DNA of 59,752 bases, counting the filler. It is 4 parts of 4 records of this genome, joined end to end, with 100 filler letters (N's around TTAATTAATTAA, not from the genome) between each part and the next. Parts side by side here need not be neighbours in the genome. Positions count along the whole stretch, not along the records: positions 31,676 to 53,015 come from SRR2962707_1183; 3 more parts are not named here. One strand, given 5' to 3'. This document shows, piece by piece, positions 10,535-53,115 of this stretch; within the stretch, counting starts at the first letter, position 1, and each line of letters starts with the position of its first letter. The notes below the pieces were generated by a model. The model was given only the letters and a program-made list of their open reading frames with translations. It did no database searches and was not told the DNA's origin. The translations under genes were made by a program, and so were the position numbers.

Positions 10535-10634
10535 NNNNNNNNNNNNNNNNNNNNNNNNNNNNNNNNNNNNNNNNNNNNTTAATTAATTAANNNNNNNNNN
10601 NNNNNNNNNNNNNNNNNNNNNNNNNNNNNNNNNN
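10535..10634. other. Artificial contig linker
   Basis: 44 N + TTAATTAATTAA (stops in all frames) + 44 N. Confidence 0.99.
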
Positions 10635-31575: not shown

Positions 31576-31675
31576 NNNNNNNNNNNNNNNNNNNNNNNNN
31601 NNNNNNNNNNNNNNNNNNNTTAATTAATTAANNNNNNNNNNNNNNNNNNNNNNNNNNNNNNNNNNNNNNNNNNNN
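31576..31675. other. Artificial contig linker (change of organism)
   Basis: N44-TTAATTAATTAA-N44; sharp drop in GC content afterwards. Confidence 0.99.
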
Positions 31676-31853: not shown

Positions 31854-31900
31854 ATCATTAAATACCGTGAGAACAAAAATTGGAATTACTGTTATATTGC
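31854..31900 (+). promoter_or_regulatory. Regulon promoter 1 (box + -7 element)
   Basis: ATCATTAAATACCGTGAG (31854-71), 21-bp gap, TATATTGC (31893-900). Confidence 0.7.
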
Positions 31901-31968
31901 AAACAATTATCACCATTTTTAAGAGGTGAATAACTCATGTTTATGATAGGTATAAAGCAATACAAGAT

Positions 31969-34900
31969 ATGATTCCAATAGAAGACGCTAATAAATACAT
32001 CGAAAAACATCAAAAACCAGAAGTAGACCGTTTTGAATTTCGGTTGTTCTCTGAACCTTATAAAATTTTAGGGAAAATATTAGGAAGAATCGAAAAAGAA
32101 GAAAGAGTATGGTATAATGTTTCAGATTTTATTGCAGCATTTGATGATCCGCTTACTATAAATCCTTGGTCGAATGAAGAAGGTATGCGCCTAGCAATGC
32201 AACTTTACGGGGTGGTACATGCACCTTATCTAGCTGGCATGTGGGATTTTATGAACACACTACCTTATCAAAAAGGTTATGATAGACAAGCATTTAGATC
32301 AAAACCATCAAAAGATATTTTAATTAATAAAATAAATTACTTAATCCGATTTTTACAATTTAGTAGAATGGGTTATAATGGATTAACACTTCAAGAACAC
32401 TTTATATACAGTACGTATCATCCTAATTTTAGCAGTTATTTTTTAGCCTCAGTTCTTCACAATGCCGAAGGAGTTTTCGATGAATTACTAGACAATATTA
32501 TTCAAGGTGAAGATGAAATTGGAGGAATTAGTGCAGATATTATTAAAGCGCTGTTACTTTCTGATGAGGAAAAACATTGGGAGATGGTCTCTAAATTATT
32601 ACTTGCGGCTCAACGCCAAGAAGGTTTAAGGCAAACCATTTTAGAATCGCTAGACGAGTCTAGTCTTGGTGCGCTTAAACATATAATCAATGTGGTATTA
32701 GAAAATGATTTAACACGCTTTAGTAGTGTAACTAGAGCTGTTAGTACTTGGTTTGGCTTAAGATGGGATCTCCCTAAAAAACCAGTTATAAATCGTGTTT
32801 TAACACTTGCACAATCTTTAATTTTAAATTTAAAAGAAGTAGATGGCTATCTTAAAAGTAAAGACAATTTAGAAGTTTTAGTCGGTTTATGGGCTATAGG
32901 AATTTTAGACGTCGATACAGCAAATAGGAAAGCACTAGATATAGTTTTCTCTTCCGAAGATAGAAACAAGAAGATTTTAGCATTGTATTTTATTTGGAAA
33001 ACAGAGCGTACTAATGATGCCTTAGTACCATATTTTACTAAAGAGCTAGGAAAAGATTATGCATTAGACCATTGGATGGCGGTAAACTTACCTCCTACCA
33101 CATTAAATAATGATACTTTTGAGCGCCTATTAACGGTTGCAAAATCTGTGACAGAAAAAGGCAAAACCTTCGAAAGTAAAATATTCTCGTGGTGGAGCTT
33201 TACACCTGAACCAACGTATTTCTTCCAGTTTATTATCAATAGCGCTACAGAAGCACAATTAGAGTTAATGGCGAACGATTTTGAAGAATTTCCTACAGAA
33301 TATAGAGAAACCTATATTCGTAAAGTATTTCCTTTACATTATAGCTATTCTTTTAATAATTATCAGCAACAGTCTAAGAAAAAAGAGCGCCTCAATTATG
33401 ACCAAAATTTTTGGAAAAGAGCTTTAGCTAGACGTGCTATTTATAACCGAAATGAGGTAGTTATGGCTACGGGATTGAATTTATTTAGTAAAATGCATTT
33501 GTATGACGCAGATTTGGAAATTGCTGAAGATTTACTAAGACGAAAACATAAAGGATTACGTACCTCTTTAATTCAGTTGTTGGTTGACTTGCCAGTAGAC
33601 CGCTTAAGAAAGAGTGTTACAAATTTAGTAACAGCAAAAAATATTGATCAGCGATTAGCTGGTTTAGAAGTATTAACTATTTTACACGACGCCAATAGAC
33701 AATCGGATTTTATTGAAACGCAAATAAGCCTTTATAACGAGCGTCCTAAAATCTCTAAAAACGAACAAGTCTATTTAGATAAGTTTTCAAACAATACGCA
33801 AGAATATAATTATAATAATGGTTTTGGAGCGGTAAATTATGATGATTTATCACCACTTTATATTCCACAATCTCATTTTAAAACAAAAACTAGTTTTTTA
33901 GATAAATTAGGAATTTCAACCTCAGACTCTTCATCCTTTAAGTTTAAAGAATTTATTAATGTCAACAAAATAGTTACTCAAGTAAATCTATTGATTGCTC
34001 TTGTTACCGAAAACCGACATTATGAATACCAAATGGAAGGGTATCAAGGAGAAATGCATACTACATATATAGAGAAAGGGCTTCACCAAATAAAAGAATT
34101 GAGGGATGATGCTACAGCAGAAGACCATTTGCATAATATTCCTTTAGCCCACTTATGGATAGAATGGTATAAAAAAAGTGAGCTCAATGATTTTGAAATG
34201 TATGCTGCCATACGTTATATCAATAATAGTAGTTACCCTTACGGATATTATAAAATATTAGAACCATTTTTAAGGCAATATTACCCAGACTTATCTGGAT
34301 TAAGTATAGGAAATAAAGACACCCATTACTCTAGGTTAAATAGTTATAACAAAATTTTAAAGCGTTTATTTAGGGCATATGTAGACACCAGCACAGTAGC
34401 CGACTTTAAACTTCATATGTTCGAAGACATGATTGCTAATTTCCCTGATAAATTTAAATTAATAAAGTTTCAAGATAATGGTTACCATTATACAACAACT
34501 TATAATTGGACAAGTATAATACTTCAATTAACCCCAAATTTTAGTGTCAATAATTTAAACCAACTTACTTCAGAGCAACTTTTAAAGTACTGGAATATTA
34601 AAATGTATTTAATAGCACAAAACATTACACACCCTACAGTTGCTTCAAATATTAAAGTGCTTACTGATAATTCAGAAAAAAGAAGTAATCTGGAATTTCC
34701 TGAGATTGAAACCACCTTAAAACTATATGAAAACGGTTTAATTAACAACGATGATTTACTTCTCCAAGCTTTAAATAAAAATCAATTAATAACCATTATT
34801 GATGGTGGTTTTAATTATAGGATGAATTACAAAAATGGATTAAAGCAAAATACAATTCCTAAAGAAGTCTTTCTCCCTTTAAAAACCAATTTATTAGAAA

Positions 34901-36969
34901 CAGAGTTAGAACGAGGAGATTTGGCAACACCTGCTTCTAATTACATTAATGCAATTCATAGAGTTGAAGGTGTTGATTATGTATTCAGAGTTCTAGAACG
35001 TTTAGGAGAAGAAACTTTTGAGCGCGGGTACAGCTATTATGGAGATAGTAAAAAGTCTAAGTTTAGTGCTATCCTCAAAATGACCCAGTTTAAAGACACC
35101 GAATCTTATGCTGATTTTGCTAGTCTTGCAGATGCTTTAAAAATTAGCAAAATACGTTTTATAGAATTGGCGTGTTATGCTACGCAGTGGGCTAGTGTTG
35201 TGGGCCAATATTTAAAAATTGATAATTTAGAAAATGCTGTTTGGTGGTTTCAAGCGCACGCTTCAGATTATATGAATAGCGAAAAAGAAACTATTATTTC
35301 CCGGTACTCTAACATCCCAAAAAACGATTTCTCGTTAGGCGCAATAGATATCGATTGGTTTAATAAAGTATATAATAGCTTAGGTAAAGCAAACTGGAAA
35401 CTACTTCATAAGGCTGCAAAATATATTACAGATGGTAATGGACACAGACAAGTAAAATTATACTCTAGTGTTATACTAGGGGAAGTTAAAATTACCGAAA
35501 CCCTACAAAAAATTAAAGAAAAACGTGATAAAGATTACGTGCGCGCATTAGGATTAATTCCTTTAAGTAAAACCGTTCCAGAAAAAGATTTATTAAAACG
35601 CTACAATCTACTACAAGACTTTTTAAAAGAAAGTAAACAGTTTGGTCAACAACGACAAGAAAGCGAAGCTATTGCAGTGGAGATTGCTTTAGATAATTTA
35701 TCTCGAAATGCGGGCTACCAAGATCGTGTGCGTTTTAGTTGGGCTATGGAAGCAAAAGCTACCCAAGCAATAATGAAAAATGCAGTTATAACCATAGATG
35801 AAACGGTTATAGAACTCGTCATTACAAACCATGGTAAAACAGAGATTAAGGTTTCCAAAGCTGGAAAATTATTAAAAAATATTCCAGCCAAACTACGCAA
35901 AGAAAAACAGGTTATAGCCTTAAAAGACAACAAAACCTATCTTTCTAGACAATACAGTAGAACACGTTTATCATTAGAAAACGCAATGGTCAACGAAGAT
36001 GAATTTACTGCTTTAGAAATTCATAGTATGATGCAACATCCTATTGTACAAGTGATGTTGAGTAAGTTAGTAATGTACGTTCCTCAAAAAGAGATTTCAG
36101 GTTTTTATGATGAAGGTATTTTAACAGATTTTCATGGAAAAACACATTCGTTAGCTGAAGATGATGTTTTGCTTATTGCACATGCTTCTCATTTGTTCCA
36201 AGTAGTTGAATGGGATAGCTACCAAAAATATTTATTTGCAGAACGGATTACCCAACCATTTAAACAAGTTTTTAGAGAATTATATTTAATAACCAATGAT
36301 GAGCGTGAACATAGTAACCGCTCAGAACGTTACCAAGGATATCAAATTCAGCCTAAAAAAACCGTAGCACTTTTAAGAGGTCGTGGTTGGACCGTGAGTA
36401 TGGAAGATGGCTTACAAAAAGTTTATCATAAATACGGTTTTATAGCTACAATGTATGCTATGGCCGACTGGTATTCCCCATCAGATGCCGAAGCACCAAC
36501 CTTGGAGGATATTCGTTTTCACTCTATAGAAAACTATAAAACCATTCCTCTCTCTGAAATTCCACCGGTAATATTTAGTGAAATAATGAGAGACATCGAT
36601 CTTGTAGTTAGTGTTGCTCACGTTGGTGGAGTAGATCCAGAAGCCAGCCATAGTACTATACAAATGCGTGCTGCATTGGCTACAGCTTCAGCAAGCTTAT
36701 TCAAACTTAAAAATAGTACCGTAAAAGAACGTTACATATTTATAAAAGGTACATTTGGCGAATACACCATACATTTAGGAAGTGGTCAGGTAAGCAAAAA
36801 CGGACTTGCATTATCTATCATTCCAGTGCATAGTCAGCATAGAGGTCGTATGTTTTTACCATTTATAGACGACGACCCCAAATCAGCAGAAATTATTTCT
36901 AAAATGAAATTACTTTCAGAAGATCATAAAATACAAGATCCAACAATTTTAGCGCAAATAAATAGCTAA
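31969..36969 (+). CDS. Large DUF4132-family protein (DUF5724/DUF4132-type, 1666 aa)
   Basis: QRQEGLRQTILE, SKQFGQQRQESE, QPFKQVFRELY and FSEIMRDIDLVVSVAHVGGVDPEASHST motifs typical of DUF4132 proteins. Confidence 0.85.
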   Translation: MIPIEDANKYIEKHQKPEVDRFEFRLFSEPYKILGKILGRIEKEERVWYNVSDFIAAFDDPLTINPWSNEEGMRLAMQLYGVVHAPYLAGMWDFMNTLPYQKGYDRQAFRSKPSKDILINKINYLIRFLQFSRMGYNGLTLQEHFIYSTYHPNFSSYFLASVLHNAEGVFDELLDNIIQGEDEIGGISADIIKALLLSDEEKHWEMVSKLLLAAQRQEGLRQTILESLDESSLGALKHIINVVLENDLTRFSSVTRAVSTWFGLRWDLPKKPVINRVLTLAQSLILNLKEVDGYLKSKDNLEVLVGLWAIGILDVDTANRKALDIVFSSEDRNKKILALYFIWKTERTNDALVPYFTKELGKDYALDHWMAVNLPPTTLNNDTFERLLTVAKSVTEKGKTFESKIFSWWSFTPEPTYFFQFIINSATEAQLELMANDFEEFPTEYRETYIRKVFPLHYSYSFNNYQQQSKKKERLNYDQNFWKRALARRAIYNRNEVVMATGLNLFSKMHLYDADLEIAEDLLRRKHKGLRTSLIQLLVDLPVDRLRKSVTNLVTAKNIDQRLAGLEVLTILHDANRQSDFIETQISLYNERPKISKNEQVYLDKFSNNTQEYNYNNGFGAVNYDDLSPLYIPQSHFKTKTSFLDKLGISTSDSSSFKFKEFINVNKIVTQVNLLIALVTENRHYEYQMEGYQGEMHTTYIEKGLHQIKELRDDATAEDHLHNIPLAHLWIEWYKKSELNDFEMYAAIRYINNSSYPYGYYKILEPFLRQYYPDLSGLSIGNKDTHYSRLNSYNKILKRLFRAYVDTSTVADFKLHMFEDMIANFPDKFKLIKFQDNGYHYTTTYNWTSIILQLTPNFSVNNLNQLTSEQLLKYWNIKMYLIAQNITHPTVASNIKVLTDNSEKRSNLEFPEIETTLKLYENGLINNDDLLLQALNKNQLITIIDGGFNYRMNYKNGLKQNTIPKEVFLPLKTNLLETELERGDLATPASNYINAIHRVEGVDYVFRVLERLGEETFERGYSYYGDSKKSKFSAILKMTQFKDTESYADFASLADALKISKIRFIELACYATQWASVVGQYLKIDNLENAVWWFQAHASDYMNSEKETIISRYSNIPKNDFSLGAIDIDWFNKVYNSLGKANWKLLHKAAKYITDGNGHRQVKLYSSVILGEVKITETLQKIKEKRDKDYVRALGLIPLSKTVPEKDLLKRYNLLQDFLKESKQFGQQRQESEAIAVEIALDNLSRNAGYQDRVRFSWAMEAKATQAIMKNAVITIDETVIELVITNHGKTEIKVSKAGKLLKNIPAKLRKEKQVIALKDNKTYLSRQYSRTRLSLENAMVNEDEFTALEIHSMMQHPIVQVMLSKLVMYVPQKEISGFYDEGILTDFHGKTHSLAEDDVLLIAHASHLFQVVEWDSYQKYLFAERITQPFKQVFRELYLITNDEREHSNRSERYQGYQIQPKKTVALLRGRGWTVSMEDGLQKVYHKYGFIATMYAMADWYSPSDAEAPTLEDIRFHSIENYKTIPLSEIPPVIFSEIMRDIDLVVSVAHVGGVDPEASHSTIQMRAALATASASLFKLKNSTVKERYIFIKGTFGEYTIHLGSGQVSKNGLALSIIPVHSQHRGRMFLPFIDDDPKSAEIISKMKLLSEDHKIQDPTILAQINS

Positions 36970-36983
36970 TCTAAAAATCATAA

Positions 36984-37072
36984 GGGCGTTACCTCGCTTA
37001 GGCGGGGTCGGGCTTTCTGTTGCAAGTCCTCGTGCTATCGCACTATGGGCTTTTCACGACAATCCCTAACGC
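36984..37072 (+). ncRNA. Flavo-1-like structured RNA / Flavobacterial intergenic repeat
   Basis: GC-rich island GGGCGTTACC...GGTCGGGCTTTC...CAAGTCCTCG...TGGGCTTTTCA...CAATCCCTAACGC with closing stem GCGTTA/TAACGC; matches my recollection of the Flavo-1 motif. Confidence 0.7.
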
Positions 37073-37090
37073 AAAAAAAATCCGTATACT

Positions 37091-37504
37091 ATGGAACTTA
37101 CATTACAACTAAAAAAACTCGGGAAGAAAAAAGTAAAAGAAGTTCCTTTTACCTTAGAAGAATCACCTAAAAACTTAGAAGCCTTATTAGTTGGTTGTGT
37201 AAAACATCAAGTTGAGGCTTTTAATGCAAAACTACAAGAAGTCAATGTTATTGGTTTTTTAAGTCCAGCCGAAATACAAGAACAAGCGCAAAAGGGTAAA
37301 GTAGATTTTGGAGAAATAACCAACACCGATTTAGCAAATCTGCAAAAAGCAATCGACAATGTTTTATTAGCCTTTAAAGACGGACTCTTTGTAGTCTTTA
37401 TAGACAATAAGGAAATTACCGATTTAAAAACGCCGCTAAAACTAACTTCGAAAAGTATTGTTACCTTTATTAGAATGACATTTTTAGTGGGTACGTATTG
37501 GTAA
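37091..37504 (+). CDS. Conserved hypothetical protein, probable partner of the DUF4132 gene
   Basis: 137 aa; GKVDFG, AFKDGLFVVFID and TFIRMTFLVG segments; same strand directly downstream. Confidence 0.8.
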   Translation: MELTLQLKKLGKKKVKEVPFTLEESPKNLEALLVGCVKHQVEAFNAKLQEVNVIGFLSPAEIQEQAQKGKVDFGEITNTDLANLQKAIDNVLLAFKDGLFVVFIDNKEITDLKTPLKLTSKSIVTFIRMTFLVGTYW

Positions 37505-37584
37505 TTTCTTTTAATTAATTATGAAAGAAGGTTGTCTTTACAATCTATTCTGAATTTGTTTCATTTAATTTAAGCATCCACTAT

Positions 37585-38490
37585 TTACAACCATTCTGTA
37601 TCAATACCCATTTCAATAAACTCATCATAAATAGTATCTTTAGCATAGCATAAGGTTGCTTTTTTTAAATTAGGGAACTGTTTTGCATCGGTACTGTGTT
37701 CAATATCCCAATACTCCACTGCTCCACCAGAAAAAGGAGCTAAATTCATATAAATTTCGTTTCCGCCATCTTGATAGATTTCTGTAACTTCTTCAGCCAA
37801 ACGCTTTGGGATTGGTAAATCTTTAAAATATTGTTCTACTTCAGCAATAGGCCCGTAACCTTCCTCATCAATATCTATCTCGCGACCTCTATACCATTTT
37901 GCAAATTCGTGAATATCAAATTGAGGCTTCAACAATTCTTTAGTATACATTAGCTCTTCAATAACCGATAATTTAAATCCAAAATCTTCGAAAGTAATAA
38001 CTTCTTCATCAAGTCGCTTAATTTTGTATTTATCTTCCGGTATTCCTTCCCAACGCACATACGGTTTGTAAGCACTTATTTCTATTGCGCTAACGGTGTC
38101 TTCGTTCATATCAAACCAAGCACTAATGCCATTCGAGACTAAAGCACCACTATCATCATTTTTAAATAATTTTATATGCTGGTTTTTATGCGATTTATAG
38201 TAGCTTACAATTTCTTGATTGTTGTAATGAAATATCCCTGAAAATGCTTTTTTTGGACTAAAGTCATAGGTTTCAGGTTGTAATTCTATAATTATAGATT
38301 CTATAAGTTCCCCACTTTTTGAGTAAGCCAATATTCCTAGATCATCCCAAGTAAAAATAGTATTGTTTTTCTTCTTTAAGGTTCGATAATTTTTAGTTAA
38401 ATGGTCTTTTAACACATCCAAAGACACTGGAAACTCAACCATTCTTGAATTTATTTGAAAACCTTTTGGAGATAAATGTAACGCAATCAT
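37585..38490 (-). CDS. Two-domain protein with C-terminal DUF6892-like domain (putative immunity protein)
   Basis: FEDFGFKLSVIEELMY...YFKDLPIP...IYQDGGNEIY...FPNLKK motif pattern. Confidence 0.65.
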   Translation of the reverse strand: MIALHLSPKGFQINSRMVEFPVSLDVLKDHLTKNYRTLKKKNNTIFTWDDLGILAYSKSGELIESIIIELQPETYDFSPKKAFSGIFHYNNQEIVSYYKSHKNQHIKLFKNDDSGALVSNGISAWFDMNEDTVSAIEISAYKPYVRWEGIPEDKYKIKRLDEEVITFEDFGFKLSVIEELMYTKELLKPQFDIHEFAKWYRGREIDIDEEGYGPIAEVEQYFKDLPIPKRLAEEVTEIYQDGGNEIYMNLAPFSGGAVEYWDIEHSTDAKQFPNLKKATLCYAKDTIYDEFIEMGIDTEWL

Positions 38491-38508
38491 AAGTCTATTT
38501 TAAGATTT

Positions 38509-38555
38509 CAAAAATAATAGCTTAATCTATATTTTTAATCCCTATCTTCCGTGAT
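38509..38555 (-). promoter_or_regulatory. Regulon promoter 2
   Basis: Minus strand ATCACGGAAGATAGGGAT (38555-38538), 21-bp gap, TATTTTTG (38516-38509). Confidence 0.75.
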
Positions 38556-38622
38556 ATTTTATATCTTGAAGCTATTCCTTTTTAGAATTATTTAAATTAA
38601 CGCATATACTAAAAAGCCAAAA

Positions 38623-38669
38623 ATCCCCTATTTCGGGGATAAAATCTAAAAAGATTAGCTCTAAATTTG
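38623..38669 (+). promoter_or_regulatory. Regulon promoter 3 (vWA/PurA-like operon)
   Basis: ATCCCCTATTTCGGGGAT with perfect 6-bp arms (38623-40), 21-bp gap, TAAATTTG (38662-69). Confidence 0.8.
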
Positions 38670-38685
38670 TTGAAAACCTTTTATT

Positions 38686-39036
38686 ATGGAAGATCAAGTA
38701 AAGAGTGCAGCGTTTATAGCATCATTAAAACGCAATAACGAAAAAATAAGAGACGATCGTGCGCATGCAATTGCAGAAGATGCACAATTAATGTACAAAC
38801 GTGAAACCGAAGATTTGGCATTATCGCTAAAACGCTTAAAACGTGAACAAGAAAATATGCTTGATATGAGCCCTACAGATGCCAACAGTCTGGTCTTAGC
38901 ATCCGATTTTAATGCGAAAGATTACGTAGCAAAAGACATCGAAATGTCTGTAAAAATAAGGAACTTAGAAATAAAATTAGAATTAGCCAAAAAACGTTAT
39001 TTACATTTATTTGGTGGAACAATAAACGAATTATAA
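38686..39036 (+). CDS. Small alpha-helical/coiled-coil hypothetical protein
   Basis: 116 aa with heptad-like charged helices; ends 2 bp before the vWA gene. Confidence 0.85.
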   Translation: MEDQVKSAAFIASLKRNNEKIRDDRAHAIAEDAQLMYKRETEDLALSLKRLKREQENMLDMSPTDANSLVLASDFNAKDYVAKDIEMSVKIRNLEIKLELAKKRYLHLFGGTINEL

Positions 39037-39038
39037 CT

Positions 39039-39905
39039 ATGGGAGGAGGAAGATTTAGTCACGATGCGTATTCTCGATTGAGAAAATCTAAAGGCTACAG
39101 TAATAAATCTAGAGAAGAAATTTTTACGGCTAGACAAATAGATCCTGAAATGGATCCTACAAAAGTAATAGTTAGAGAGTCTCGAGATTCTGAGGAACAT
39201 CCTGAAACGCTTTCTATTATTGTTGCTTTAGATGTAACAGGAAGTATGGGGTTTGTGCCAGAGCATATTGTAAAAGAAGCTTTGCCAGACCTTATTGGTT
39301 CTTTAATGGAAGCTGGTATTGAACATCCACAAGTGTTATTTTTAGGCATTGGAGATTTTATTTATGATAATGCACCATTACAAGTTGGACAATTTGAGTC
39401 ATCAGCAGAGTTATTAGACCGTTGGTTAACCCGAGTTTATTTAGAAGGTGGCGGAGGTGGAAACAATCAAGAAGGCTATAATCTAGCACATTTATTTGCT
39501 GCAAGACATACATCGATTGATTGTTGGGAAAAAAGACAACAAAAAGGATTTTTATTTACCATTGGTGATGAACCTGTTTCTTCTGACATTCCTGCTGAAA
39601 TTATAAAGAGATATACCCTTGCAGATGAGGCAGAAACCATAACTACAGAAGCCATTATTAAAGAGGCTCAAGAGAAATACAATGTTTTTCATATGCATTT
39701 AGAACATAATGAATTGTCTAAGCAAGAAAAACGTAAGGGAAATTGGAAAACGCTTTTAGGCGAAAATTATATGGAAATACCAGATTTTAAATCCGTGGCA
39801 AAACGGATTGCAGAAGTGGTCATTAACAACCATAAACCAGGTGCCGCTACCAATAGATTTAATGCTTCTGGGAGTTCAGATATTAAAGTAGAGAATATGC
39901 TATAA
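39039..39905 (+). CDS. vWA-domain protein
   Basis: MIDAS-like IIVALDVTGSMG, plus FLGIGD, EGGGGGNNQEGY and FTIGDE. Confidence 0.85.
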   Translation: MGGGRFSHDAYSRLRKSKGYSNKSREEIFTARQIDPEMDPTKVIVRESRDSEEHPETLSIIVALDVTGSMGFVPEHIVKEALPDLIGSLMEAGIEHPQVLFLGIGDFIYDNAPLQVGQFESSAELLDRWLTRVYLEGGGGGNNQEGYNLAHLFAARHTSIDCWEKRQQKGFLFTIGDEPVSSDIPAEIIKRYTLADEAETITTEAIIKEAQEKYNVFHMHLEHNELSKQEKRKGNWKTLLGENYMEIPDFKSVAKRIAEVVINNHKPGAATNRFNASGSSDIKVENML

Positions 39906-41039: not shown

Positions 41040-41185
41040 ATCAGTATGCCAATTGCCAACGCATTAGGCATTTTATAAAAAATGTATTTTTAGATCCAAG
41101 GCAAGCCTTGGTGTATTTAAATTTCCATTATACCGTAAAGTAATTCTGATGCATCACTCTCTAGAAGTATTTCGTTATTTTCAAA

Positions 41186-41232
41186 ATCATTAGTTTCAGG
41201 GATAAAGAACTCATTAGTTCAAAGTACCTTAG
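41186..41232 (+). promoter_or_regulatory. Regulon promoter 4 (operon containing the two-component system)
   Basis: ATCATTAGTTTCAGGGAT (41186-203), 21-bp gap, TACCTTAG (41225-32). Confidence 0.72.
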
Positions 41233-41256
41233 TTGCTTTAAACAACAATAGAGAAA

Positions 41257-42309: not shown

Positions 42310-42351
42310 ATGTATTAAAAAAGAAAATAATTTTTGATTAACACCCAGCAA

Positions 42352-44835: not shown

Positions 44836-44838
44836 ATA

Positions 44839-45498
44839 ATGACACAAGATATCACACCCAAAATTCAGAACCAATTAAATTTATCGGCCTTGATTTTGAA
44901 GAAAAATCATAAAAACGCAGCCTTAAAAAGTTGGTCGGGTTTTAACCTAAAAGATGCAATGCACGTTAAGCATGCGGAAAGACTTTTAACTATGTACGGT
45001 ATTAAATCAGGCTTGCATTTACGGAACAGTTTACAACGTTACGAGAGCGGACAAATGGTATCTCATACTTTTGAAAAATTAGCCGCAGCGTTTCGCAATG
45101 ATACCAGTAAGACTTTTGAAGCTAAATACCAAGCTCTAGAAAGTCCTAAAACCAAAAACACCTACAAAATGGTGTGGAAATATCGTTTCAGTTTAAAAAA
45201 TCAAAAACTCAGAGGATATGAAATGGCAATGTACATTTTTCAAATGAGATTAGGCCTCGTCTTAGACTTTATAACAACAGAAGAAATGATGTTGCGTTTA
45301 GAAGAAGCCTACAATATTACAAAGTCCACGTTTTCTAGTTGGGGAGAATTTCACCGCAACGTGTGCTTGGGAGATGAGTACGTTTTAGGGGCTACAGAAC
45401 TCGATGTTAGTAAATTCCCAGGGACAGAAACACTTTGGGAGCACTACCAACGCTTACATATAGCACATGCCGATTGGTTTAAAGAATGGAAAAAATGA
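44839..45498 (+). CDS. DUF1266-like protein
   Basis: LLTMYGI...GYEMA...TFSSWGEF..N..LG pattern resembles DUF1266. Confidence 0.6.
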   Translation: MTQDITPKIQNQLNLSALILKKNHKNAALKSWSGFNLKDAMHVKHAERLLTMYGIKSGLHLRNSLQRYESGQMVSHTFEKLAAAFRNDTSKTFEAKYQALESPKTKNTYKMVWKYRFSLKNQKLRGYEMAMYIFQMRLGLVLDFITTEEMMLRLEEAYNITKSTFSSWGEFHRNVCLGDEYVLGATELDVSKFPGTETLWEHYQRLHIAHADWFKEWKK

Positions 45499-47738
45499 GG
45501 ATAACAGAACAAGAGCTTATACAACAAATTGAGCGTGCAGAACAACTGTACAAGACCAACCTTTATATGCATTTACAGCCTGTAATTAGTAATATACAAG
45601 AGCACCTAGAGCTTTTAACTAATAATTCAGACTATGCCAAATATTACCGCATTTATATGCTGTATATTGGGATTTATGAAGAACTGAATATGCAAGTTTT
45701 GCAGTCTTATTTACAAGCATTAATTAACATTAATGAAGTAGAAGCATCAGATTACGAATACGTTTGTAGTTATTACAAACAATGTGAAGAAACAGTGTAC
45801 CAAGAAGCTTTAATGCTATATCCATACAACGAAACTTTACACCTACATTACGCTTTAAAATTACAAGAAGATAAACGTTTTAAAGAAGCTATTGTTACTT
45901 TAAAATATATCCTAGAATGTTATCCTGCCTCCACAGAAGCTCGATTCTTACTTTGGGATATTGAAGCAACTCAATTAGCACATTTATGTGCATCAAACGA
46001 AGAAGCAAACTGCTATGAACTTTTAGAATTAGCTTCGGCTACTCATAATGAAGAAGTTTTAAAAGGATTACAATTAGATCATCGATTAGATAAAGCAAAT
46101 CAAACTTTAGCCTATATACAGGTTGCACTGTGGGAAGAAAGGTCTACTGAAATAAAACAACATTGGAATACAGAATGGAAACTTTTAGAATTGACAGCAG
46201 TAACACGTATGCTCTTGGCAGATTATGCAAAATCTTTTATGATGTACGATATGGTATCTCAAGTTTTAAAAGCACCTTCAGAACCAGAGTTTCCAGAAGA
46301 AGAGTATAGTAATTTTGAGGAATATCAAACGTTTATCAAGGCGTTTGCTACTTCTGGCTGGCAATTGGCACAACATCAATATGTATTGATAGGAAATTCG
46401 GCATATTTTTATTCAAAAAATAAAGAAATCTTAGATATTAGTGTAGAAAGAGGCTTAGCTTTAAATCCTAAAAACCCATTACTATTGGTATTAAAGGCAA
46501 AATCCTTTTTTTTTGTCAATAATTATAACGAGACCGGAGTAAATTACCACGAAGCATTTAAAAACGGTCTCCGTTTGAGTGAATATCTATTTTATTTACT
46601 AGAAGTAAATAGTAGAATTGAAAATTGGCAAGGTATATTAGATATTGTTGCTCAGTTTCATAAAGGGACTCCTCCTACACTTAAAACCTTATTTTTTAAA
46701 GCACGTGCACTCGTCAAATTAAGACAATTTGATGAAGCTCTGGAAACGATTAATGTAGCGCTTTCTGATTTTCCGTTACCACCTCATTCTTACGCACCAT
46801 GGTTGTATAACTTAAGAATGATTATTCATAAACAAAACCATAACTACACGGCTTTTTTTGAAGATATGCAGTCAGAAATCAATTATTATACTATTGGCGA
46901 CTCAGAATATTGTAGCACAATGAATATGTGTATTGAAGCCCTTATTGAAATGGGCAATTATCAAGAATGTTACAAATATGCCATATATAACCACGAACAA
47001 GGACAATTATTACCAGAATTATATCCTGTGTTTCTGTGGATTTGTTTTTATGATTATTTAGAAAAACCTGATGATATAGCAGACGCTTCAGAACTAGATT
47101 TAATACAAGAACCTTCTACTTTTATAGAATACAGAACCAATGGTTTAATATATTGGATGCTAGGTAACATCTGTGCTGCTACAAATGCATTACAACAAGC
47201 GGCACAACTAGCCACAAACAAAGCTTACTATTTAAAACTAGCATTAAGTTGCGCTAAAGAGGATTTTAATACTACAAAAAGTATTGCTGCTTGCCAAATT
47301 ATTAAAACCCAGATACCAGAATCTAGTGACTGGAAAACAGACTATCTGTTAGCCGATTTATTAAAAACAGGGAAGCATTATAAAAAAGCATTAGCTAGTT
47401 TTAACCAATTATTACAAAGCTATCCAGACTATTCGTTTTTTGAATTTCCAAAAGACAATAATAATATGATGCTAGCCACACTTAAAACATTATCTAAAGC
47501 TATAGAGAATGAAGGAGATTACATCAAATACAACGCTATGCTTTTAAGTAAAGAGAATCCTTCTGCTAACGCATTATTAGAACATTTAGAGGTCGTACAA
47601 ACGCACTTTGAAACTGATAAATTCCTTCTGCATAATTTATTAGAACAAATTTTCAAGTTAAATATTGATTTAGAAAATAATGAATTAGAATTGTTAAAAG
47701 ACATCAAATCTAAAATAAGAACCTCATATTTCAATTAA
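45486..47738 (+). CDS. Tetratricopeptide repeat protein
   Basis: Repeated helical motifs (KARALVKLRQFDEALE, LADLLKTGKHYKKALASFNQLL..YP). Confidence 0.78.
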   Translation: MEKMRITEQELIQQIERAEQLYKTNLYMHLQPVISNIQEHLELLTNNSDYAKYYRIYMLYIGIYEELNMQVLQSYLQALININEVEASDYEYVCSYYKQCEETVYQEALMLYPYNETLHLHYALKLQEDKRFKEAIVTLKYILECYPASTEARFLLWDIEATQLAHLCASNEEANCYELLELASATHNEEVLKGLQLDHRLDKANQTLAYIQVALWEERSTEIKQHWNTEWKLLELTAVTRMLLADYAKSFMMYDMVSQVLKAPSEPEFPEEEYSNFEEYQTFIKAFATSGWQLAQHQYVLIGNSAYFYSKNKEILDISVERGLALNPKNPLLLVLKAKSFFFVNNYNETGVNYHEAFKNGLRLSEYLFYLLEVNSRIENWQGILDIVAQFHKGTPPTLKTLFFKARALVKLRQFDEALETINVALSDFPLPPHSYAPWLYNLRMIIHKQNHNYTAFFEDMQSEINYYTIGDSEYCSTMNMCIEALIEMGNYQECYKYAIYNHEQGQLLPELYPVFLWICFYDYLEKPDDIADASELDLIQEPSTFIEYRTNGLIYWMLGNICAATNALQQAAQLATNKAYYLKLALSCAKEDFNTTKSIAACQIIKTQIPESSDWKTDYLLADLLKTGKHYKKALASFNQLLQSYPDYSFFEFPKDNNNMMLATLKTLSKAIENEGDYIKYNAMLLSKENPSANALLEHLEVVQTHFETDKFLLHNLLEQIFKLNIDLENNELELLKDIKSKIRTSYFN

Positions 47739-47759
47739 AGGTATTAAGTTTACATTTTA

Positions 47760-49727
47760 ATGAAGTTATCTCTTACATATTTTATATTCAATTTCTTCTT
47801 TTATATAGGAATTAGCACCTTGTCTTATGCTCAAGACATAGATAGTACGATTGAATTAGATTCTCTTGCAAACATTTATTATACCAATATTTATACGCAA
47901 CCCCAAATTGCAAAATTAGCCGCTACAAAATGGCTCGAAGGAAGCAAAAATTCAGATTTGGGACTTCAAGAAGCAAGTGCCTTGTATGCATTAGGAAACC
48001 TTAGTAATATTATTGGAGAATATAAAAACACCATAAAATATACAAATCAAGCTATTGATTTACTTAAAAAACTGGACACTAAAAAAGGATTAGCGGCTTG
48101 TTATAATATCCTCGCTTCTGCCTATAAAAATTTAGGTGAATATCCGAAAGCTATTGACTGTTTTATGAATTGCTTAAAGTATTCAAAACAAACCAATAGC
48201 CAAATACAGGAAGCTAATGCATATCTAAATATAGCAACATTGTATCTGCTTCAAAAAGATTATAAAAAATCAGCAGAAAATCTAGATCGTGCTGCCAATC
48301 TCTATCGCTCTTTAGGAGATGATGATGGAGTGCTCACAACGCTATTTAATTTTGCAAATATTTTAAAAGAACAAGGTAAGTTTAGTCAAGCAAGAAAGCA
48401 TTACCAAACCGTTTTAGATTACAGAGAAAAAGAAGGTAATAAAGCGGCTGTTGCCTATGTAAATATAAATCTTTCGCAAATGTTAGTGGAAGAAGGTAAG
48501 TGTAAAGAAGCTGTTGTAGCTCTAAAAAAAACATTAGCTCTTTTAGAAGAGCTAAAATTTAATTCAGACATTAGTATTGTTTTAAACGATTTAGGTTTAT
48601 GCGAAACAAAATTAGGTAATACAATTGCAGCGATAAATTATTTTCAACGCGCTTTAGCTATTGGCGAAGAACAATCGCTACACCCATACAGTTCCGACAT
48701 ATACAAGAATCTGGCAAATTTATATCAAAAAGAAAACAATTATAAAAAAGCATTTGAATTCTATCAAAAAGGAGTGGCAAGTACTGCGGAGCAAAACTCA
48801 CTTGATAAAAAGGTATATGTAGCTGAAATACAAGAACGCTATGAAACAGCATTAAAGGAAGCTAGAATTCAATTATTAGAAAAAGAACAAAAATTAGGAG
48901 AAACAGAATTGCAAAAAGTAGAGCTCACTGTAAAACGCCAACGCTTAGTTAGAAATGTTTTAATAGCTGGATTTATATTGGTTTTTATTACTTTAATTAT
49001 TTTAAGGGTTTCTCATATTAAAAGACTACGCATTCAAAAAGAATTGAGTATCCAGCAAGAGGAAAATGCTAAGCAGCAAATAAATAAAATGATAAATGAT
49101 CATAAACTATCTGTTATTGAGCGCTATCAAGAAGGTCAAGATGAAGAACGTTCAAGACTTGCTCGGGAAATTCATGATGGTATTGGCAGCGATTTAGCAA
49201 GCATCAAAATAGCGTTCGAGCAGTATTCAGAACAACACCATGATGATTTCCAATCTAGGAGAATCGCTTCTGCTATTAATAATGCTTGTGCGGATGTTCG
49301 TAGCCTTTCTCATCAATTACACCCGCTCCCCTTTTCAAAAATAGGATTCACTAGTTTTTTAAGTGATTTTATTGATCAAATAACTAAAAAAACAGCTACT
49401 GAAATTCAAACTTTTTTCTTTCCAGAAGAAGCGATTGATGAGTTACCTGATTTCTTACTAGCAGACGTATACCGTATTGTACAAGAATTAATTAATAATA
49501 TTCTAAAACATGCAGAAGCCAAGCATGCTGCTGTTCAACTCACCATGCATGAAGATCATTTAAATATTGTTATAAACGATGATGGTATAGGTTTTCAAAA
49601 TAACAAAAAATCGGGAATAGGGCTTCGAAATATAAAAGAACGCTTACATAAAATTCAAGGTAGTTTAGAAATCGATTGTAGCCCAGGACGCGGAACATCA
49701 ATTACCATTGACATACCAGTAAATTAA
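47760..49727 (+). CDS. TPR-containing sensor histidine kinase (HisKA_3 type)
   Basis: Signal peptide, TPR array, TM helix, EERSRLAREIHDGIG, QELINNILKHA, DDGIGF and GIGLRNI. Confidence 0.93.
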   Translation: MKLSLTYFIFNFFFYIGISTLSYAQDIDSTIELDSLANIYYTNIYTQPQIAKLAATKWLEGSKNSDLGLQEASALYALGNLSNIIGEYKNTIKYTNQAIDLLKKLDTKKGLAACYNILASAYKNLGEYPKAIDCFMNCLKYSKQTNSQIQEANAYLNIATLYLLQKDYKKSAENLDRAANLYRSLGDDDGVLTTLFNFANILKEQGKFSQARKHYQTVLDYREKEGNKAAVAYVNINLSQMLVEEGKCKEAVVALKKTLALLEELKFNSDISIVLNDLGLCETKLGNTIAAINYFQRALAIGEEQSLHPYSSDIYKNLANLYQKENNYKKAFEFYQKGVASTAEQNSLDKKVYVAEIQERYETALKEARIQLLEKEQKLGETELQKVELTVKRQRLVRNVLIAGFILVFITLIILRVSHIKRLRIQKELSIQQEENAKQQINKMINDHKLSVIERYQEGQDEERSRLAREIHDGIGSDLASIKIAFEQYSEQHHDDFQSRRIASAINNACADVRSLSHQLHPLPFSKIGFTSFLSDFIDQITKKTATEIQTFFFPEEAIDELPDFLLADVYRIVQELINNILKHAEAKHAAVQLTMHEDHLNIVINDDGIGFQNNKKSGIGLRNIKERLHKIQGSLEIDCSPGRGTSITIDIPVN

Positions 49728-49733
49728 TAAATT

Positions 49734-50369
49734 GTGGAGAAAACAAACATTATAATTGCAGACGATCATTTAATGTTCATTGAAGGGATCAATACCATTT
49801 TAAAAAATATGGACGAAATTGGAGAAGTGCATATTGCAACTGAAGGGAAACAGGTTATTAGATTACTCTCTCAGTTTAAAATTGGTTTAATTATAAGCGA
49901 CATTAGTATGCCCAAAATGGACGGTATAGAATTGCTTACAGAAATTAAAAAAAAGCATAAAGACGTAAAAATAATCATGTTGAGCATGCTCGACAATCAT
50001 AGAACAGTACATAAAGTCATACAAAAAGGGGCAGACGGTTTTGTTCCGAAGTTTACAAGTAAAGAAGAGCTACAAAAAGCGGTACGTTCCGTTTTAAATG
50101 ATGAACAATACTTTTCTGAACTCATAAAACAACGATATATGGAAAGTGTTTTTGAACGCAAAAAATATAAAAACATCGAACTATCACCAAGAGAGAAGGA
50201 TGTCTTAGCGCTTTTAGGAGAAGAGCTTACTTCTAAAGAGATTTCAGAAAAATTATTTATCTCTGTAAATACAGTAGAAACGCATAGAAAAAATATCCTA
50301 TTAAAAACAGGTTCTAAAACTACAACTGGCGCAGTACGATTTGCAATAGAGTCTGGACTATTTGATTAA
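49734..50369 (+). CDS. NarL/LuxR-family response regulator
   Basis: IADDH, SDISMP, and LSPREKDVL...ISEKLFISVNTVETHRKNI helix-turn-helix. Confidence 0.95.
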   Translation: MEKTNIIIADDHLMFIEGINTILKNMDEIGEVHIATEGKQVIRLLSQFKIGLIISDISMPKMDGIELLTEIKKKHKDVKIIMLSMLDNHRTVHKVIQKGADGFVPKFTSKEELQKAVRSVLNDEQYFSELIKQRYMESVFERKKYKNIELSPREKDVLALLGEELTSKEISEKLFISVNTVETHRKNILLKTGSKTTTGAVRFAIESGLFD

Positions 50370-50456
50370 AAAAGCGGCTGTATAAAAAGTGAATTTATAG
50401 TTTCAAACTGAGTTTAGACACTTATTATTTAGTCACTTTTTTGTTTTTTTAAACTA

Positions 50457-51440
50457 CTATTCCGTTCTAATATCATAAAAGGCCAAAGCAGCTCTAATCT
50501 CTTTTAATTCCTTATTAGATGTAGTTATATCATTCTTTTCTGTAAGCATCTCTCCGCGATAAATAAACCTTGATTCCAAATCAAAATAAACAATATAAAT
50601 TCCCTTTAAAGGGTTTTGATATTTCTCATTTTCTTTATTATTTATTCTAGTATCTTCTAAATATTGAACCCAGGCTCCCTTAGATAAAGAAGATTTATCC
50701 AAGAATATTTTTCTATACTCACTAATTTTATAATAAGGATACGTGAGCTCCAATTTGGTTTGAATATTATTTTCAATTTTAGTTTTAAAAAGTTCAAAAT
50801 TAGTTACATTTTCAGATAAGTGAAAAGCATGTACTTTCCACATATTGTCTTCTAATTTCAAAGGCACTGTTATGAATCCTTCAGGGTAACTAGGTGTTTT
50901 AACTAATAAGCTGTGTTCATAACCATTATTTAATACGTCATAGGAAGCATTCAATTTATCAACAAATTTGGTAATTATTTCTTCCAATGTATCTGAAGTT
51001 AGTGCTTCTTTAAAAATTAATTCAATCACCGCTAAACCATATTTTACATCTAGAATATCACTTTTAAAATCTACAATTACCGCTTGTTTAGCTTCATGAT
51101 ATTTCAATGCTTTTTGATATAGATCATTAAATTCTATGTGATATGAAGCTATATAATCGGCAATCAATATTTTTTTAGCATCAAAATATGTGTAAAACTC
51201 TATATCAGGATTTTTTTTATGATATATATGTACAGAAAATGAATTAGGATTCATAGTAGCTGCATTAAAAAATCTATTTAAATTTTTATAAGTAAGCTCA
51301 CCATTATACTCTCTTTCAAGATATTCTTCTAAATTTTTAGAGGCTTGTTTCTTAGATATTCCACCCACTATTTGTGCGCAATTAGTAAAAAGAAGTAAGA
51401 TTCCTAATAAGCAAAGACCTATAATAATTATAGTTTTCAT
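50457..51440 (-). CDS. Hypothetical exported protein, possible lipoprotein
   Basis: MKTIIIIGLCLLGILLLFTNC signal with a lipobox-like Cys; start at 51440 fits the promoter spacing. Confidence 0.75.
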   Translation of the reverse strand: MKTIIIIGLCLLGILLLFTNCAQIVGGISKKQASKNLEEYLEREYNGELTYKNLNRFFNAATMNPNSFSVHIYHKKNPDIEFYTYFDAKKILIADYIASYHIEFNDLYQKALKYHEAKQAVIVDFKSDILDVKYGLAVIELIFKEALTSDTLEEIITKFVDKLNASYDVLNNGYEHSLLVKTPSYPEGFITVPLKLEDNMWKVHAFHLSENVTNFELFKTKIENNIQTKLELTYPYYKISEYRKIFLDKSSLSKGAWVQYLEDTRINNKENEKYQNPLKGIYIVYFDLESRFIYRGEMLTEKNDITTSNKELKEIRAALAFYDIRTE

Positions 51441-51460
51441 AAATGATATTTTATACCATA

Positions 51461-51507
51461 TAAATTTAAGTCTGTTCAAGTTTTAAACGCTCACTGTTTT
51501 CCGTGAA
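51461..51507 (-). promoter_or_regulatory. Regulon promoter 5
   Basis: Minus strand TTCACGGAAAACAGTGAG (51507-51490), 21-bp gap, TAAATTTA (51468-51461). Confidence 0.7.
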
Positions 51508-51515
51508 TTTATATT

Positions 51516-51562
51516 ATCACTTAAATGAGGTGTTTATTTGAGAATGTGTTCTAATATCTTTG
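51516..51562 (+). promoter_or_regulatory. Regulon promoter 6
   Basis: ATCACTTAAATGAGGTGT (51516-33, weaker right arm), 21-bp gap, TATCTTTG (51555-62). Confidence 0.65.
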
Positions 51563-51591
51563 AATTATAAAATAATACTAATATAAATATC

Positions 51592-51987
51592 ATGGGATTA
51601 CAAGAAAAAAGAGCTGCAAAGGCTATAGAAGATCAATATTTAGGAGATTATCAAAAAGAAATTAATGAGGTGGTTGGTAAAGAATTACCTATAAACATTA
51701 ATTGGGATACTTTTGAAATGGATTTCATAAAATTTGTTCCTAGTGTATGCTTGCAACGCCTTACTGATGGTTTAAGAGAAGTTTGTAAAGATGCTATGGG
51801 AAAAGAAGCTGTTCAAGAGGTTGTTAACTCTATAAAGGTTTATTGCATTCCAAATGAAGGAGCTGAAGAAAAAAAGGGACTTAATCTAGAAAACGGTGTG
51901 TTTTCTTTAACTGCTTGTTGGGGAGGCCATCACAGTGGATACTTTACAGACTTAGTAATACGCGAATATTTAGAGAATAACTTATAA
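51592..51987 (+). CDS. Hypothetical protein (131 aa), paralogous to the C-terminal half of 52178-52867
   Basis: Clean ORF with its own promoter and terminator; D.MGKEA motif. Confidence 0.85.
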   Translation: MGLQEKRAAKAIEDQYLGDYQKEINEVVGKELPININWDTFEMDFIKFVPSVCLQRLTDGLREVCKDAMGKEAVQEVVNSIKVYCIPNEGAEEKKGLNLENGVFSLTACWGGHHSGYFTDLVIREYLENNL

Positions 51988-52014
51988 AATATAATGACAT
52001 TATTTTGAGGGGTC

Positions 52015-52053
52015 AAAAAAGCCTTTAAGAAATTCATCTTAAAGGCTTTTTTT
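52015..52053. terminator. Bidirectional intrinsic terminator
   Basis: AAAAAAGCCTTTAAGA-aattca-TCTTAAAGGCTTTTTTT between convergent genes. Confidence 0.88.
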
Positions 52054-52177
52054 CATCAGAATAACATTCCATGTTAAAACTGTAATCACATTGGCTTAAT
52101 ACAAGTGTTTTTTTGTATTCTTATTTTTTTATATTAATAACTCTATTCTACTAACTACATTAGATTCTTACTTAATT

Positions 52178-52867
52178 TTATAAATGAGCTTCTATTTGTT
52201 CTTGTAATTGGATTGCATTTGGAAAACTTCTAAATACTTTAGAAGTGTCTATTGTAATAAAAAGTACACCTTCTACTATTCTAGTTTTATTCTCTTTAGC
52301 TAGATTAAATTCAATTTTTGAAACTGAAGTTATAAAAGCTTCTTTAGCCAATGAATCTGAAGCTATTCTAGAAATTGTTTCTTTGAGTAAAACTAATACT
52401 TTTAATGCATAATATTTCCCTGTATCTTCTGGTGTATTCTTATCATTATAAACTATGGAAATTTCTTTATCTATAATAGACTTTACTACTAACTCTAAAT
52501 CTTTGATATCTTTTTTTAGCTGAAGTATAGTTGGTATTTCTTCATCTTCAGGAATGAAAGGAATTTTTCCGTCAGATAAAAGGTAGGCATATTTATTAAT
52601 GTTACTTATTGAAATTGAAGAAATAGCATGAGCTGATATGTAATTAAATTGAGCCTTCCCGTCAAATAAATCACATAATAAAATTGCTTTCTTGTCAGAA
52701 TCATAATTCACAAAAAAACCAGAAGTACTATCTAAATTCATACTAATGGTAACTTGTGGCATTTGTGGTCTTTCCTTATCTCTTTCTATAGCTGCAATCT
52801 CTAGAAGCATTTCTAAAACTTGATTATTATCTAATACTGGTAATTGGAGCATTGTTTTAAAATCCAT
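52178..52867 (-). CDS. Hypothetical two-domain protein (229 aa)
   Basis: Clean ORF; C-terminal half resembles the 131-aa neighbour (DSLAKEA, VEGV, IEAHL). Confidence 0.82.
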   Translation of the reverse strand: MDFKTMLQLPVLDNNQVLEMLLEIAAIERDKERPQMPQVTISMNLDSTSGFFVNYDSDKKAILLCDLFDGKAQFNYISAHAISSISISNINKYAYLLSDGKIPFIPEDEEIPTILQLKKDIKDLELVVKSIIDKEISIVYNDKNTPEDTGKYYALKVLVLLKETISRIASDSLAKEAFITSVSKIEFNLAKENKTRIVEGVLFITIDTSKVFRSFPNAIQLQEQIEAHL

Positions 52868-52892
52868 ATTTACTTTAATTTAAGTTTAATTA

Positions 52893-52939
52893 CAAAGTTG
52901 GCGCAATGCACTACATTTTAAGTAACCAATTTCAGTGAT
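52893..52939 (-). promoter_or_regulatory. Regulon promoter 7
   Basis: Minus strand ATCACTGAAATTGGTTAC (52939-52922), 21-bp gap, CAACTTTG (52900-52893). Confidence 0.68.
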
Positions 52940-53015
52940 ATTTAGATTTGGCTTATGTACAGTAGAAAAATGAGAAGATTATAATATTCTTATGCTAGCT
53001 ACCCTAAAAATTAAC

Positions 53016-53115
53016 NNNNNNNNNNNNNNNNNNNNNNNNNNNNNNNNNNNNNNNNNNNNTTAATTAATTAANNNNNNNNNNNNNNNNNNNNNNNNNNNNN
53101 NNNNNNNNNNNNNNN
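53016..53115. other. Artificial contig linker (change of organism)
   Basis: N44-TTAATTAATTAA-N44. Confidence 0.99.

Follow-up and report, generated by a model that had tools for sequence, protein, structure and literature searches.

Does a short element that recurs at seven places in one contig of a marine flavobacterium mark promoters under common control, and, if so, which regulator reads it? The element, an 18-bp palindrome with the consensus ATCMCTG-N4-CAGKGAT (hereafter, the box), lies on a Flavobacteriaceae contig (SRR2962707_1183) that forms part of the 59,752-nucleotide stretch of DNA analysed here (the window). An earlier note on this DNA had described seven promoters that share the box exactly 21 bp upstream of a Bacteroidota -7 element, and had proposed that every complete transcription unit of a "21-kb island" is co-activated, most likely by the response regulator encoded at 49734-50369 (the island regulator). 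We consider it probable that the box is a class II activator site for one regulator clade and that the island kinase-regulator pair switches on the seven units, with likely cross-talk from a conserved chromosomal paralog of this pair (the core paralog).

Seven boxes at a fixed distance from the -7 octamer

All seven boxes, each separated by 21 bp from an octamer resembling TAnnTTTG, were recovered on the strands and at the positions claimed (Table 1). The contig encodes 15 proteins in seven plausible transcription units, distributed over both strands, and each unit is headed by a box. The octamers of boxes 1-7 agree with TAnnTTTG at 4, 6, 6, 5, 5, 6, and 5 of 6 positions, respectively, and end 16-29 bp before the start codon in six units and 68 bp before it in one. 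According to the accessible part of one source (PMC7366714), the Bacteroides housekeeping promoter combines TAnnTTTG at -7 with TTTG at about -33; in Flavobacterium johnsoniae, no -33 motif was found.

In leave-one-out scoring over 1,357 intergenic positions, every held-out box came out among the top 4-7. A second matrix (the core-only matrix), for which 77 boxes were taken from genomes that lack the island regulator (independence is partial, these sites having been chosen with a window-seeded matrix), placed the seven boxes at ranks 1-7 of 21,323 contig positions. With this matrix, and among the spacers of 15-27 bp that were tried, 21 bp alone was positive at all seven promoters (sum 68.8). 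None of 1500 dinucleotide shuffles reached 68.8 at any spacer from 19 to 23 bp (best, -71.5). Matches of at least 11 bits numbered seven on this contig vs one on the other three contigs of the window together. A 16-bit match at window position 56837, within a hybrid kinase gene of the gammaproteobacterial contig, was taken as chance. A generic scan for sigma-70 promoters and terminators remained at chance level (77 vs 92.5 and 9 vs 8.4, respectively).

The box is conserved ahead of leading genes

Across relatives, the box plus the octamer at 21 bp was present in 9 of 10 orthologous regions upstream of the DUF4132 gene, and this combination preceded all orthologs of the SMI1 (9/9) and 229-aa (9/9) genes, 10 of the 11 orthologs of the 327-aa gene, and 6 of the 9 orthologs of the DUF6892 gene, with two of the misses having a box further upstream, before inserted genes. 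Four of eight orthologs of the 116-aa gene passed at spacer 21, three more had a strong box with the octamer apparently at 22 bp, and one box was weak. For the 131-aa gene, 1 of 14 orthologs passed, the script having chosen the strong shared box; a weak proximal box with its octamer was visible in all four loci inspected. Orthologs of internal genes gave none (0/7, 0/8, 0/7, 0/8, 0/8, 0/11, and 0/8), and the 137-aa gene had a box in 1 of 10 orthologs, the one in which it leads its operon.

Box 6, ahead of the 131-aa gene, is weak (4.6 bits); box 5, the strong one 26 bp away, is probably also the primary site for this divergent gene. The same strong-plus-weak pair was seen again in 4/4 orthologous loci displayed.

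The spacing was further assessed in a sample of 721,617 bases that were fetched by protein homology or by cluster extent, the extents having been picked after pattern matches were seen. In this sample, 75 of 84 strong boxes were intergenic and, with both orientations considered, TAnnTTTG matches of at least 5/6 numbered 44 at spacer 21, whereas none of the other spacers among the 24 tried (10-33 bp) gave more than four. The nine boxes located in coding DNA had no octamer at spacer 21.

A regulator clade tracks the box

A pattern scan of 301 Flavobacteriaceae genomes yielded dispersed box sites, so the box is not confined to the cluster found in the window. The core paralog, which consists of a regulator about 40% identical to that of the window and a TPR-HisKA_3 kinase of the same type, was found in 32 of these genomes (at most 10 candidates were scored per genome). 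Three or more sites were present in 10 of 34 genomes with regulators of the clade (the 32 with the core paralog and two with only other paralogs), compared to 0 of 267 others, and in 7 of 30 when four island genomes were left out; the genomes being related, Fisher P values overstate the certainty of this association. Among 97 Winogradskyella genomes, the nine that encode the island regulator hold 7-10 sites, and the other 88 hold 0-2 (0-1 in those with only a weaker regulator match).

At the level of loci, a box of at least 13 bits was found beside 28 of 35 core-clade regulator genes, compared to 3 of 28 other NarL-type genes, with a matrix partly trained on these loci. In the core locus, a box precedes the kinase of the system itself, and a strong-plus-weak pair follows the regulator, often with 24 bp from the strong to the weak box and 21 bp from the weak box to an octamer, which is the same tandem design as that of boxes 5 and 6. 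Directly after the core regulator, behind these tandem boxes, many genomes encode a 140-aa membrane protein without an assigned family (L167:6473-6895), which is likely the most conserved target; for the annotation of this protein, TP_0070, assigned to 13-15% of members, is no more than a lead. In genome G232, where no core regulator was detected, the kinase of a further paralog is preceded by two boxes, which lie at divergent promoters (L176:4025-4050).

The box also changes with the regulator. Sister regulators carry Asn in place of Glu in the recognition helix (TVNTH; the window regulator has TVETH and the core regulator TIESY), and the equivalent of this residue contacts bases in NarL. Five Asn-type genomes gave 21 matches to an A-type pattern (A at half-site position 7) and none to the G-type pattern; 18 of the 21 were intergenic, two pairs represent one palindrome read both ways, and the reversed control gave 2. 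Five Glu-type genomes gave 34 G-type and 4 A-type matches, in a table that is only partly blind, given that these genomes were selected for many G-type matches and that the A-type pattern was derived from G578, an Asn-type genome. In these comparisons, the helix change is found to co-vary with the box change, an association that links the box to this candidate clade. The G-type pattern was also applied to 13 genomes at the phylum level whose regulator matches were weaker, and clear sites came mainly from one of them, G582. The branching of the island, core, and variant clades in the regulator tree has weak support. A LytTR system present in some Winogradskyella clusters was also considered as the binder and rejected, because neither the window contig nor several of the clusters with boxes contain it.

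Island regulator or core paralog

The proposal that the regulator at 49734-50369 co-activates all units stands in part: the site is conserved, occupies an activator-like position before all seven units, and is tied to NarL/LuxR-type regulators, the island regulator being the likeliest binder; the proposal is incomplete in that the box also marks the family-wide regulon of the core paralog. The binder is not uniquely assignable because the core regulon places the box before orthologs of window genes in genomes without the island regulator, and because the core paralog is present in 13 of 15 genomes with it.

It is unlikely that the core paralog alone binds the box, with the cluster plugged into a host regulon and the island system acting as a second tier with other targets. 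The architecture of the core locus and the top ranks that the core-only matrix gives to the window boxes are in its favor, yet two genomes, G594 and G130, retain boxes although no core regulator was detected among all their candidates scored (69/69 and 51/51, respectively). In G594, the cluster has diverged (64% identity for the kinase and 81% for the regulator) and carries four boxes of 22-26 bits, three with the octamer at 21 bp. In G018, boxes are present with only a third paralog. Furthermore, the island regulator is retained at 81-92% identity in all clusters seen, even where neighbours were lost. Positions 2 and 4 also distinguish the island boxes from the core-only ones, with T at half-site position 2 in 97 of 98 island half-sites compared to 92 of 154 in core-only genomes. 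The island and core kinases are 34-35% identical in the cytoplasmic part and 16-21% identical in the sensing part, and, therefore, the two kinases probably feed different signals into one promoter design. On balance, we judge that both regulators would read the box.

Several points weigh against activation by the island regulator. The core paralog is present in most island-regulator genomes (13/15, compared to 32/301 in the family sample; the core call in six Winogradskyella genomes is based on score and length). In G164 and G280, which have no island regulator, the box stands ahead of orthologs of four window genes, namely those for the 137-aa and DUF4132 proteins (50-51% identity) and for the 229-aa (25%) and 131-aa (35%) proteins. 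The G594 and G130 genomes may be incomplete, and the G130 boxes could be a recent carry-over, the cluster being 83-94% identical to that of G003. The island half-site counts are not independent, as they include orthologous promoters, and the window boxes, at 4.6-19.7 bits, are more degenerate than those of relatives. The limits given above for the core-only matrix, the Fisher tests, and the helix table belong here as well. Finally, the site, spacing, conservation, co-occurrence, and helix-box co-variation are sequence-based, whereas binding, activation, start sites, and phosphotransfer are what we infer.

Proposed mechanism and its alternatives

Under activation by the clade regulator, the TPR-HisKA_3 kinase would sense a signal at its periplasmic TPR region and autophosphorylate, and the island kinase (47760) would pass the phosphate to the island regulator (49734). 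A dimer of this NarL/FixJ-type regulator, a member of one Bacteroidota clade, is then predicted to bind the palindrome, which lies 21 bp upstream of the -7 octamer, over the place of the -33 element, and would be centred near -42 for a transcription start about 5 nt beyond the octamer. The bound dimer would recruit RNA polymerase with the housekeeping sigma factor in a class II manner, with transcription from the -7 promoter. All seven units would thereby be switched on. Box 4 would make the island two-component system autoregulated, with positive feedback, the kinase and regulator genes ending the operon that it heads. The conserved chromosomal paralog, reading a nearly identical box, would probably cross-activate the cluster where both occur.

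The same geometry bears on the sign of the control. A regulator of this family could instead repress by blocking the -33 region, which the box overlies, until freed by a signal, and the presence of a -33 element does not discriminate (1/44 box promoters compared to 12/117 others, P = 0.12, the control set itself having no -33 peak). This alternative appears improbable: a single, exact spacer would be unnecessary for repression, the proximal copy of the tandem sites stays at 21 bp, and many octamers are off-consensus. Activation rather than repression is favored because a single spacer is allowed.

We regard it as very improbable that the box is read by another co-segregating factor, be it an extracytoplasmic function (ECF) sigma factor or an unlinked transcription factor. 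The assignment of the binder was made from sequence, and the search of the genomes covered only part of the co-occurring regulators; however, the palindrome is paired with a housekeeping -7 octamer, is found at the loci of the regulators themselves, and changes with their recognition helix. A chance pattern of AT-rich DNA, or a set of terminator hairpins, has a negligible probability, even if the box at 38623-38640 was also called a terminator-like hairpin on the minus strand, given the outcome of the shuffles, the restriction of conservation to first genes, and reversed-pattern controls near zero.

Comparison with known systems

The island system combines a palindrome, a single fixed distance to the core promoter element, and a position over the -35-equivalent region, that is, a class II geometry. 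For LuxR (lux box), TraR (tra box), and NarL/VraR/DosR, an 18-20-bp palindromic dimer site likewise abuts the -35-equivalent region. The lux and tra boxes lie near -42, and primary and secondary sites with cooperativity occur in such systems. Unlike these, the system described here has a different box sequence, a Bacteroidota -7 element, and a TPR-domain sensor. None of the named NCBIfam models comes near its cut-off. Porphyromonas gingivalis FimS/FimR, where FimR is a LuxR-type regulator, shares the arrangement of a TPR-domain sensor kinase and a regulator in Bacteroidota; the window kinase, however, scores 60 bits against FimS (cut-off, 600), over the TPR part only, and the targets differ.

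The Gac system of Pseudomonas works via Rsm small RNAs. In the available parts of the reports on Gac/Rsm and arc1-3, one NarL-family two-component system likewise stands over variable, poorly annotated defence genes (PMC8926400; 10.1101/2025.02.26.640152), and arc2 includes a von Willebrand domain protein (PMC8926400). In contrast to Gac/Rsm, the boxes directly precede protein genes and defence is a conjecture here, and the island regulator scores 99 bits against GacA (cut-off, 280). A further likeness concerns the heterogeneous polyimmunity loci, which, as far as the accessible text goes, hold SUKH, SuFu, ankyrin, and leucine-rich repeat (LRR) genes in close same-strand runs that vary between strains, as do the related clusters (PMC3482391; PMC3113570). 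Same orientation, short gaps, and strain variability hold for single operons of relatives, whereas the window has seven units on both strands and one immunity domain among 15 proteins, and the polyimmunity loci are described, in the part of the source available, without a dedicated regulator or box (PMC3482391).

The literature covered, from which supplements were excluded and in which most subscription journals fell outside coverage, contained no description of this motif or regulon. The type of circuit is known. What appears undescribed is the motif and its reach across the family, together with the helix-box variant and the arrangement of two sensors. The analysis provides a motif, a promoter geometry, and a target list for a two-component clade present in about one-ninth of the sampled Flavobacteriaceae genomes (34/301), makes a natural helix-box variant pair available, and groups dozens of hypothetical gene families under a single, putatively inducible programme.

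Targets of the putative regulon

The predicted targets in the window comprise DUF5724/4132/7737, DUF7738/6892, an adenylosuccinate-synthetase-like module, SUKH, DUF1266, TPR, and seven proteins without a Pfam family. In larger related clusters, box-headed operons include SUKH, SuFu, DUF1963, DUF2262, DUF2314, DUF1444, LRR, and endonuclease V (EndoV) genes, together with genes for a 2OG-Fe(II) oxygenase, an HD protein, and a TssD (Hcp)-like protein. An orphan TssD (Bacteroidota Hcp)-like gene, absent from the window, follows the ortholog of the 229-aa gene in a box-headed unit of Winogradskyella clusters (L071:3506-3898). Targets in core-only genomes include ankyrin and LRR-DUF1963 proteins, alpha-2-macroglobulin, CAP, M48 and M57 peptidases, type IX secretion system (T9SS) cargo, and many unnamed exported proteins. 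In G001, SUKH, SuFu, and an ankyrin-bearing DUF2314 protein are encoded within one box-headed run.

SUKH, SuFu, ankyrin, and LRR proteins are described, in the sources as available, as immunity families of polyimmunity loci (PMC3482391; PMC3113570), an EndoV as shielding Bacillus subtilis from a deaminase toxin (10.64898/2026.09.29.755374), and Pseudomonas as linking danger sensing to such defence genes (PMC8926400; 10.1101/2025.02.26.640152). Tentatively, from the families encoded, the output of the regulon could be protection from antagonism by other bacteria, a reasonable possibility that we place below even confidence. Counting against defence, SUKH is the sole recognised immunity domain among the 15 window proteins, and many core targets resemble general envelope or surface proteins. 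No toxin family was recognised among the 15 window proteins, of which seven lack any Pfam family. An envelope stress response as the output is conceivable, with some doubt.

More speculatively, and again doubtfully, the regulon might represent a Bacteroidota danger-sensing immune regulon, in which TPR kinases would detect attack by rivals or envelope damage and one box would induce immunity, lesion-repair, protease-trap, and unnamed families. Such a programme would induce orphan immunity proteins (SUKH, SuFu, ankyrin, and LRR), lesion repair (EndoV and the 2OG-Fe(II) oxygenase), and alpha-2-macroglobulin protease traps, and mobile clusters, that of the window among them, would bring a second sensor acting on this box and, with it, a further input to one response. 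If so, the box could serve throughout the phylum to pick out defence genes that are now annotated as hypothetical proteins; and should the programme be a defence against bacterial antagonism, it would be the Bacteroidota counterpart of Pseudomonas danger sensing and a route to new protective genes.

Genes of the contig

In the island regulator, both PF00072 and PF00196 exceed the cut-off, and the acidic pocket, phospho-acceptor Asp, and Lys of the receiver are all present, as read from the translation; the nearest structures are VraR and NarL. In the adjoining kinase, PF07730 and PF02518 were found, the H-box could be aligned, and one transmembrane-like stretch was located at about residues 395-421.

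Table 1. Boxes, octamers, and genes of the Flavobacteriaceae contig, in window coordinates
Feature	Position	Strand	-7 octamer	Remarks
Contig holding all boxes	31676-53015			21,340 bp; GC 31.8%; bounded by linkers 31576-31675 and 53016-53115
Box 1	31854-31871	+	31893-31900	Heads DUF5724/DUF4132 unit
Box 2	38538-38555	-	38509-38516	Heads DUF7738/DUF6892 gene
Box 3	38623-38640	+	38662-38669	Heads 116-aa/vWA-like/adenylosuccinate-synthetase-like unit
Box 4	41186-41203	+	41225-41232	Heads SMI1-to-regulator unit
Box 5	51490-51507	-	51461-51468	Strongest; heads 327-aa gene
Box 6	51516-51533	+	51555-51562	Weak, secondary; heads 131-aa gene
Box 7	52922-52939	-	52893-52900	Heads 229-aa gene
DUF5724-DUF4132-DUF7737 protein	31969-36969	+		1666 aa; domain search
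137-aa protein	37091-37504	+		No family; conserved partner of DUF4132 gene
DUF7738-DUF6892 protein	37585-38490	-		301 aa; domain search
116-aa protein, 288-aa vWA-like protein, adenylosuccinate-synthetase-like protein	38686-41039	+
SMI1/KNR4 (SUKH) protein, 826-aa protein, DUF1266 protein, 750-aa TPR protein	41257-47738	+		826-aa protein without assigned function
Sensor kinase	47760-49727	+		TPR region, HisKA_3, HATPase_c; domain search
NarL/FixJ-type response regulator	49734-50369	+		Receiver and GerE helix-turn-helix; candidate binder
327-aa gene	50457-51440	-		No known family
131-aa gene	51592-51987	+		No known family
229-aa gene	52178-52867	-		No known family

The three genes at 38686-41039 form a conserved module under putative box control. 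The 288-aa protein, which has no Pfam or PDB match, contains a motif resembling a metal ion-dependent adhesion site (MIDAS) and is von Willebrand factor A (vWA)-like by manual reading. The adenylosuccinate-synthetase-like protein scores under both the purA and purZ cut-offs, and the substrate of this enzyme may be other than inosine monophosphate (IMP). PADLOC gave one match among 13 proteins, the SMI1 domain (PDC-M40A).

Relatives of the 131-aa and 229-aa proteins adjoin related regulators in other genomes as well. The 131-aa protein has a confidently predicted fold (pLDDT 95.5), for which Foldseek returned no match at E <= 0.001; the best structural match (Z 6.4, rmsd 3.3 over 100 residues) was to zincin-like and other folds, and the matching atlas clusters are unnamed. 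This protein is 99% identical to a Galbibacter orientalis protein, with close relatives scattered over Flavobacteriaceae and Cytophagales genera.

An accessory cluster in relatives

The "21-kb island" of the earlier note has to be redefined. The window joins four unrelated contigs by artificial spacers (N44-linker-N44, at 10535-10634, 31576-31675, and 53016-53115), and the composition shifts along it because of contig boundaries, so that the GC contrast is an artefact of concatenation. The contigs flanking that of the boxes are unrelated to it (GC 48% and 40%); the left-hand one carries clpP and the beginning of clpX and the right-hand one rho and trxA. What holds is that relatives show a patchy accessory cluster: a syntenic cluster is present in three Winogradskyella genomes and the island regulator in 9 of 97. 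The cluster is considered accessory because of this patchy occurrence among relatives, a property that is not demonstrable from the stretch alone. A metagenome scan added just two close island regulators among the 80 loci retained.

Public contigs from four sequencing runs are identical to 33100-53015, with zero differences; in three of the runs, a single piece of 21,340 bp contains this stretch and may be its source. The contig end (52986-53015, about 30 bp) also occurs in a 63-bp public contig of about twice the depth, and the assembly is broken there because of this repeat.

Individual clusters differ in their surroundings. In G594, three tandem, near-identical genes encode proteins of 213-215 aa without an assigned family (L256:1203-3249), and the cluster lies near genes that, by manual reading of translations, resemble a phage-tail-like contractile injection system (L257:2586-18000), where no box was found. 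In G130, which is outside the Winogradskyella genus list, the cluster is 83-94% identical to that of G003 (L173-L174 vs L071-L073), compared to 67-75% for that of the window, and this similarity suggests a recent inter-genus transfer of the G130/G003-type cluster. In the G737 cluster (L340:4233-5810), several genes have been inserted after the regulator, with boxes retained on both sides, and the 525-aa protein encoded by the insert may be a transposase.

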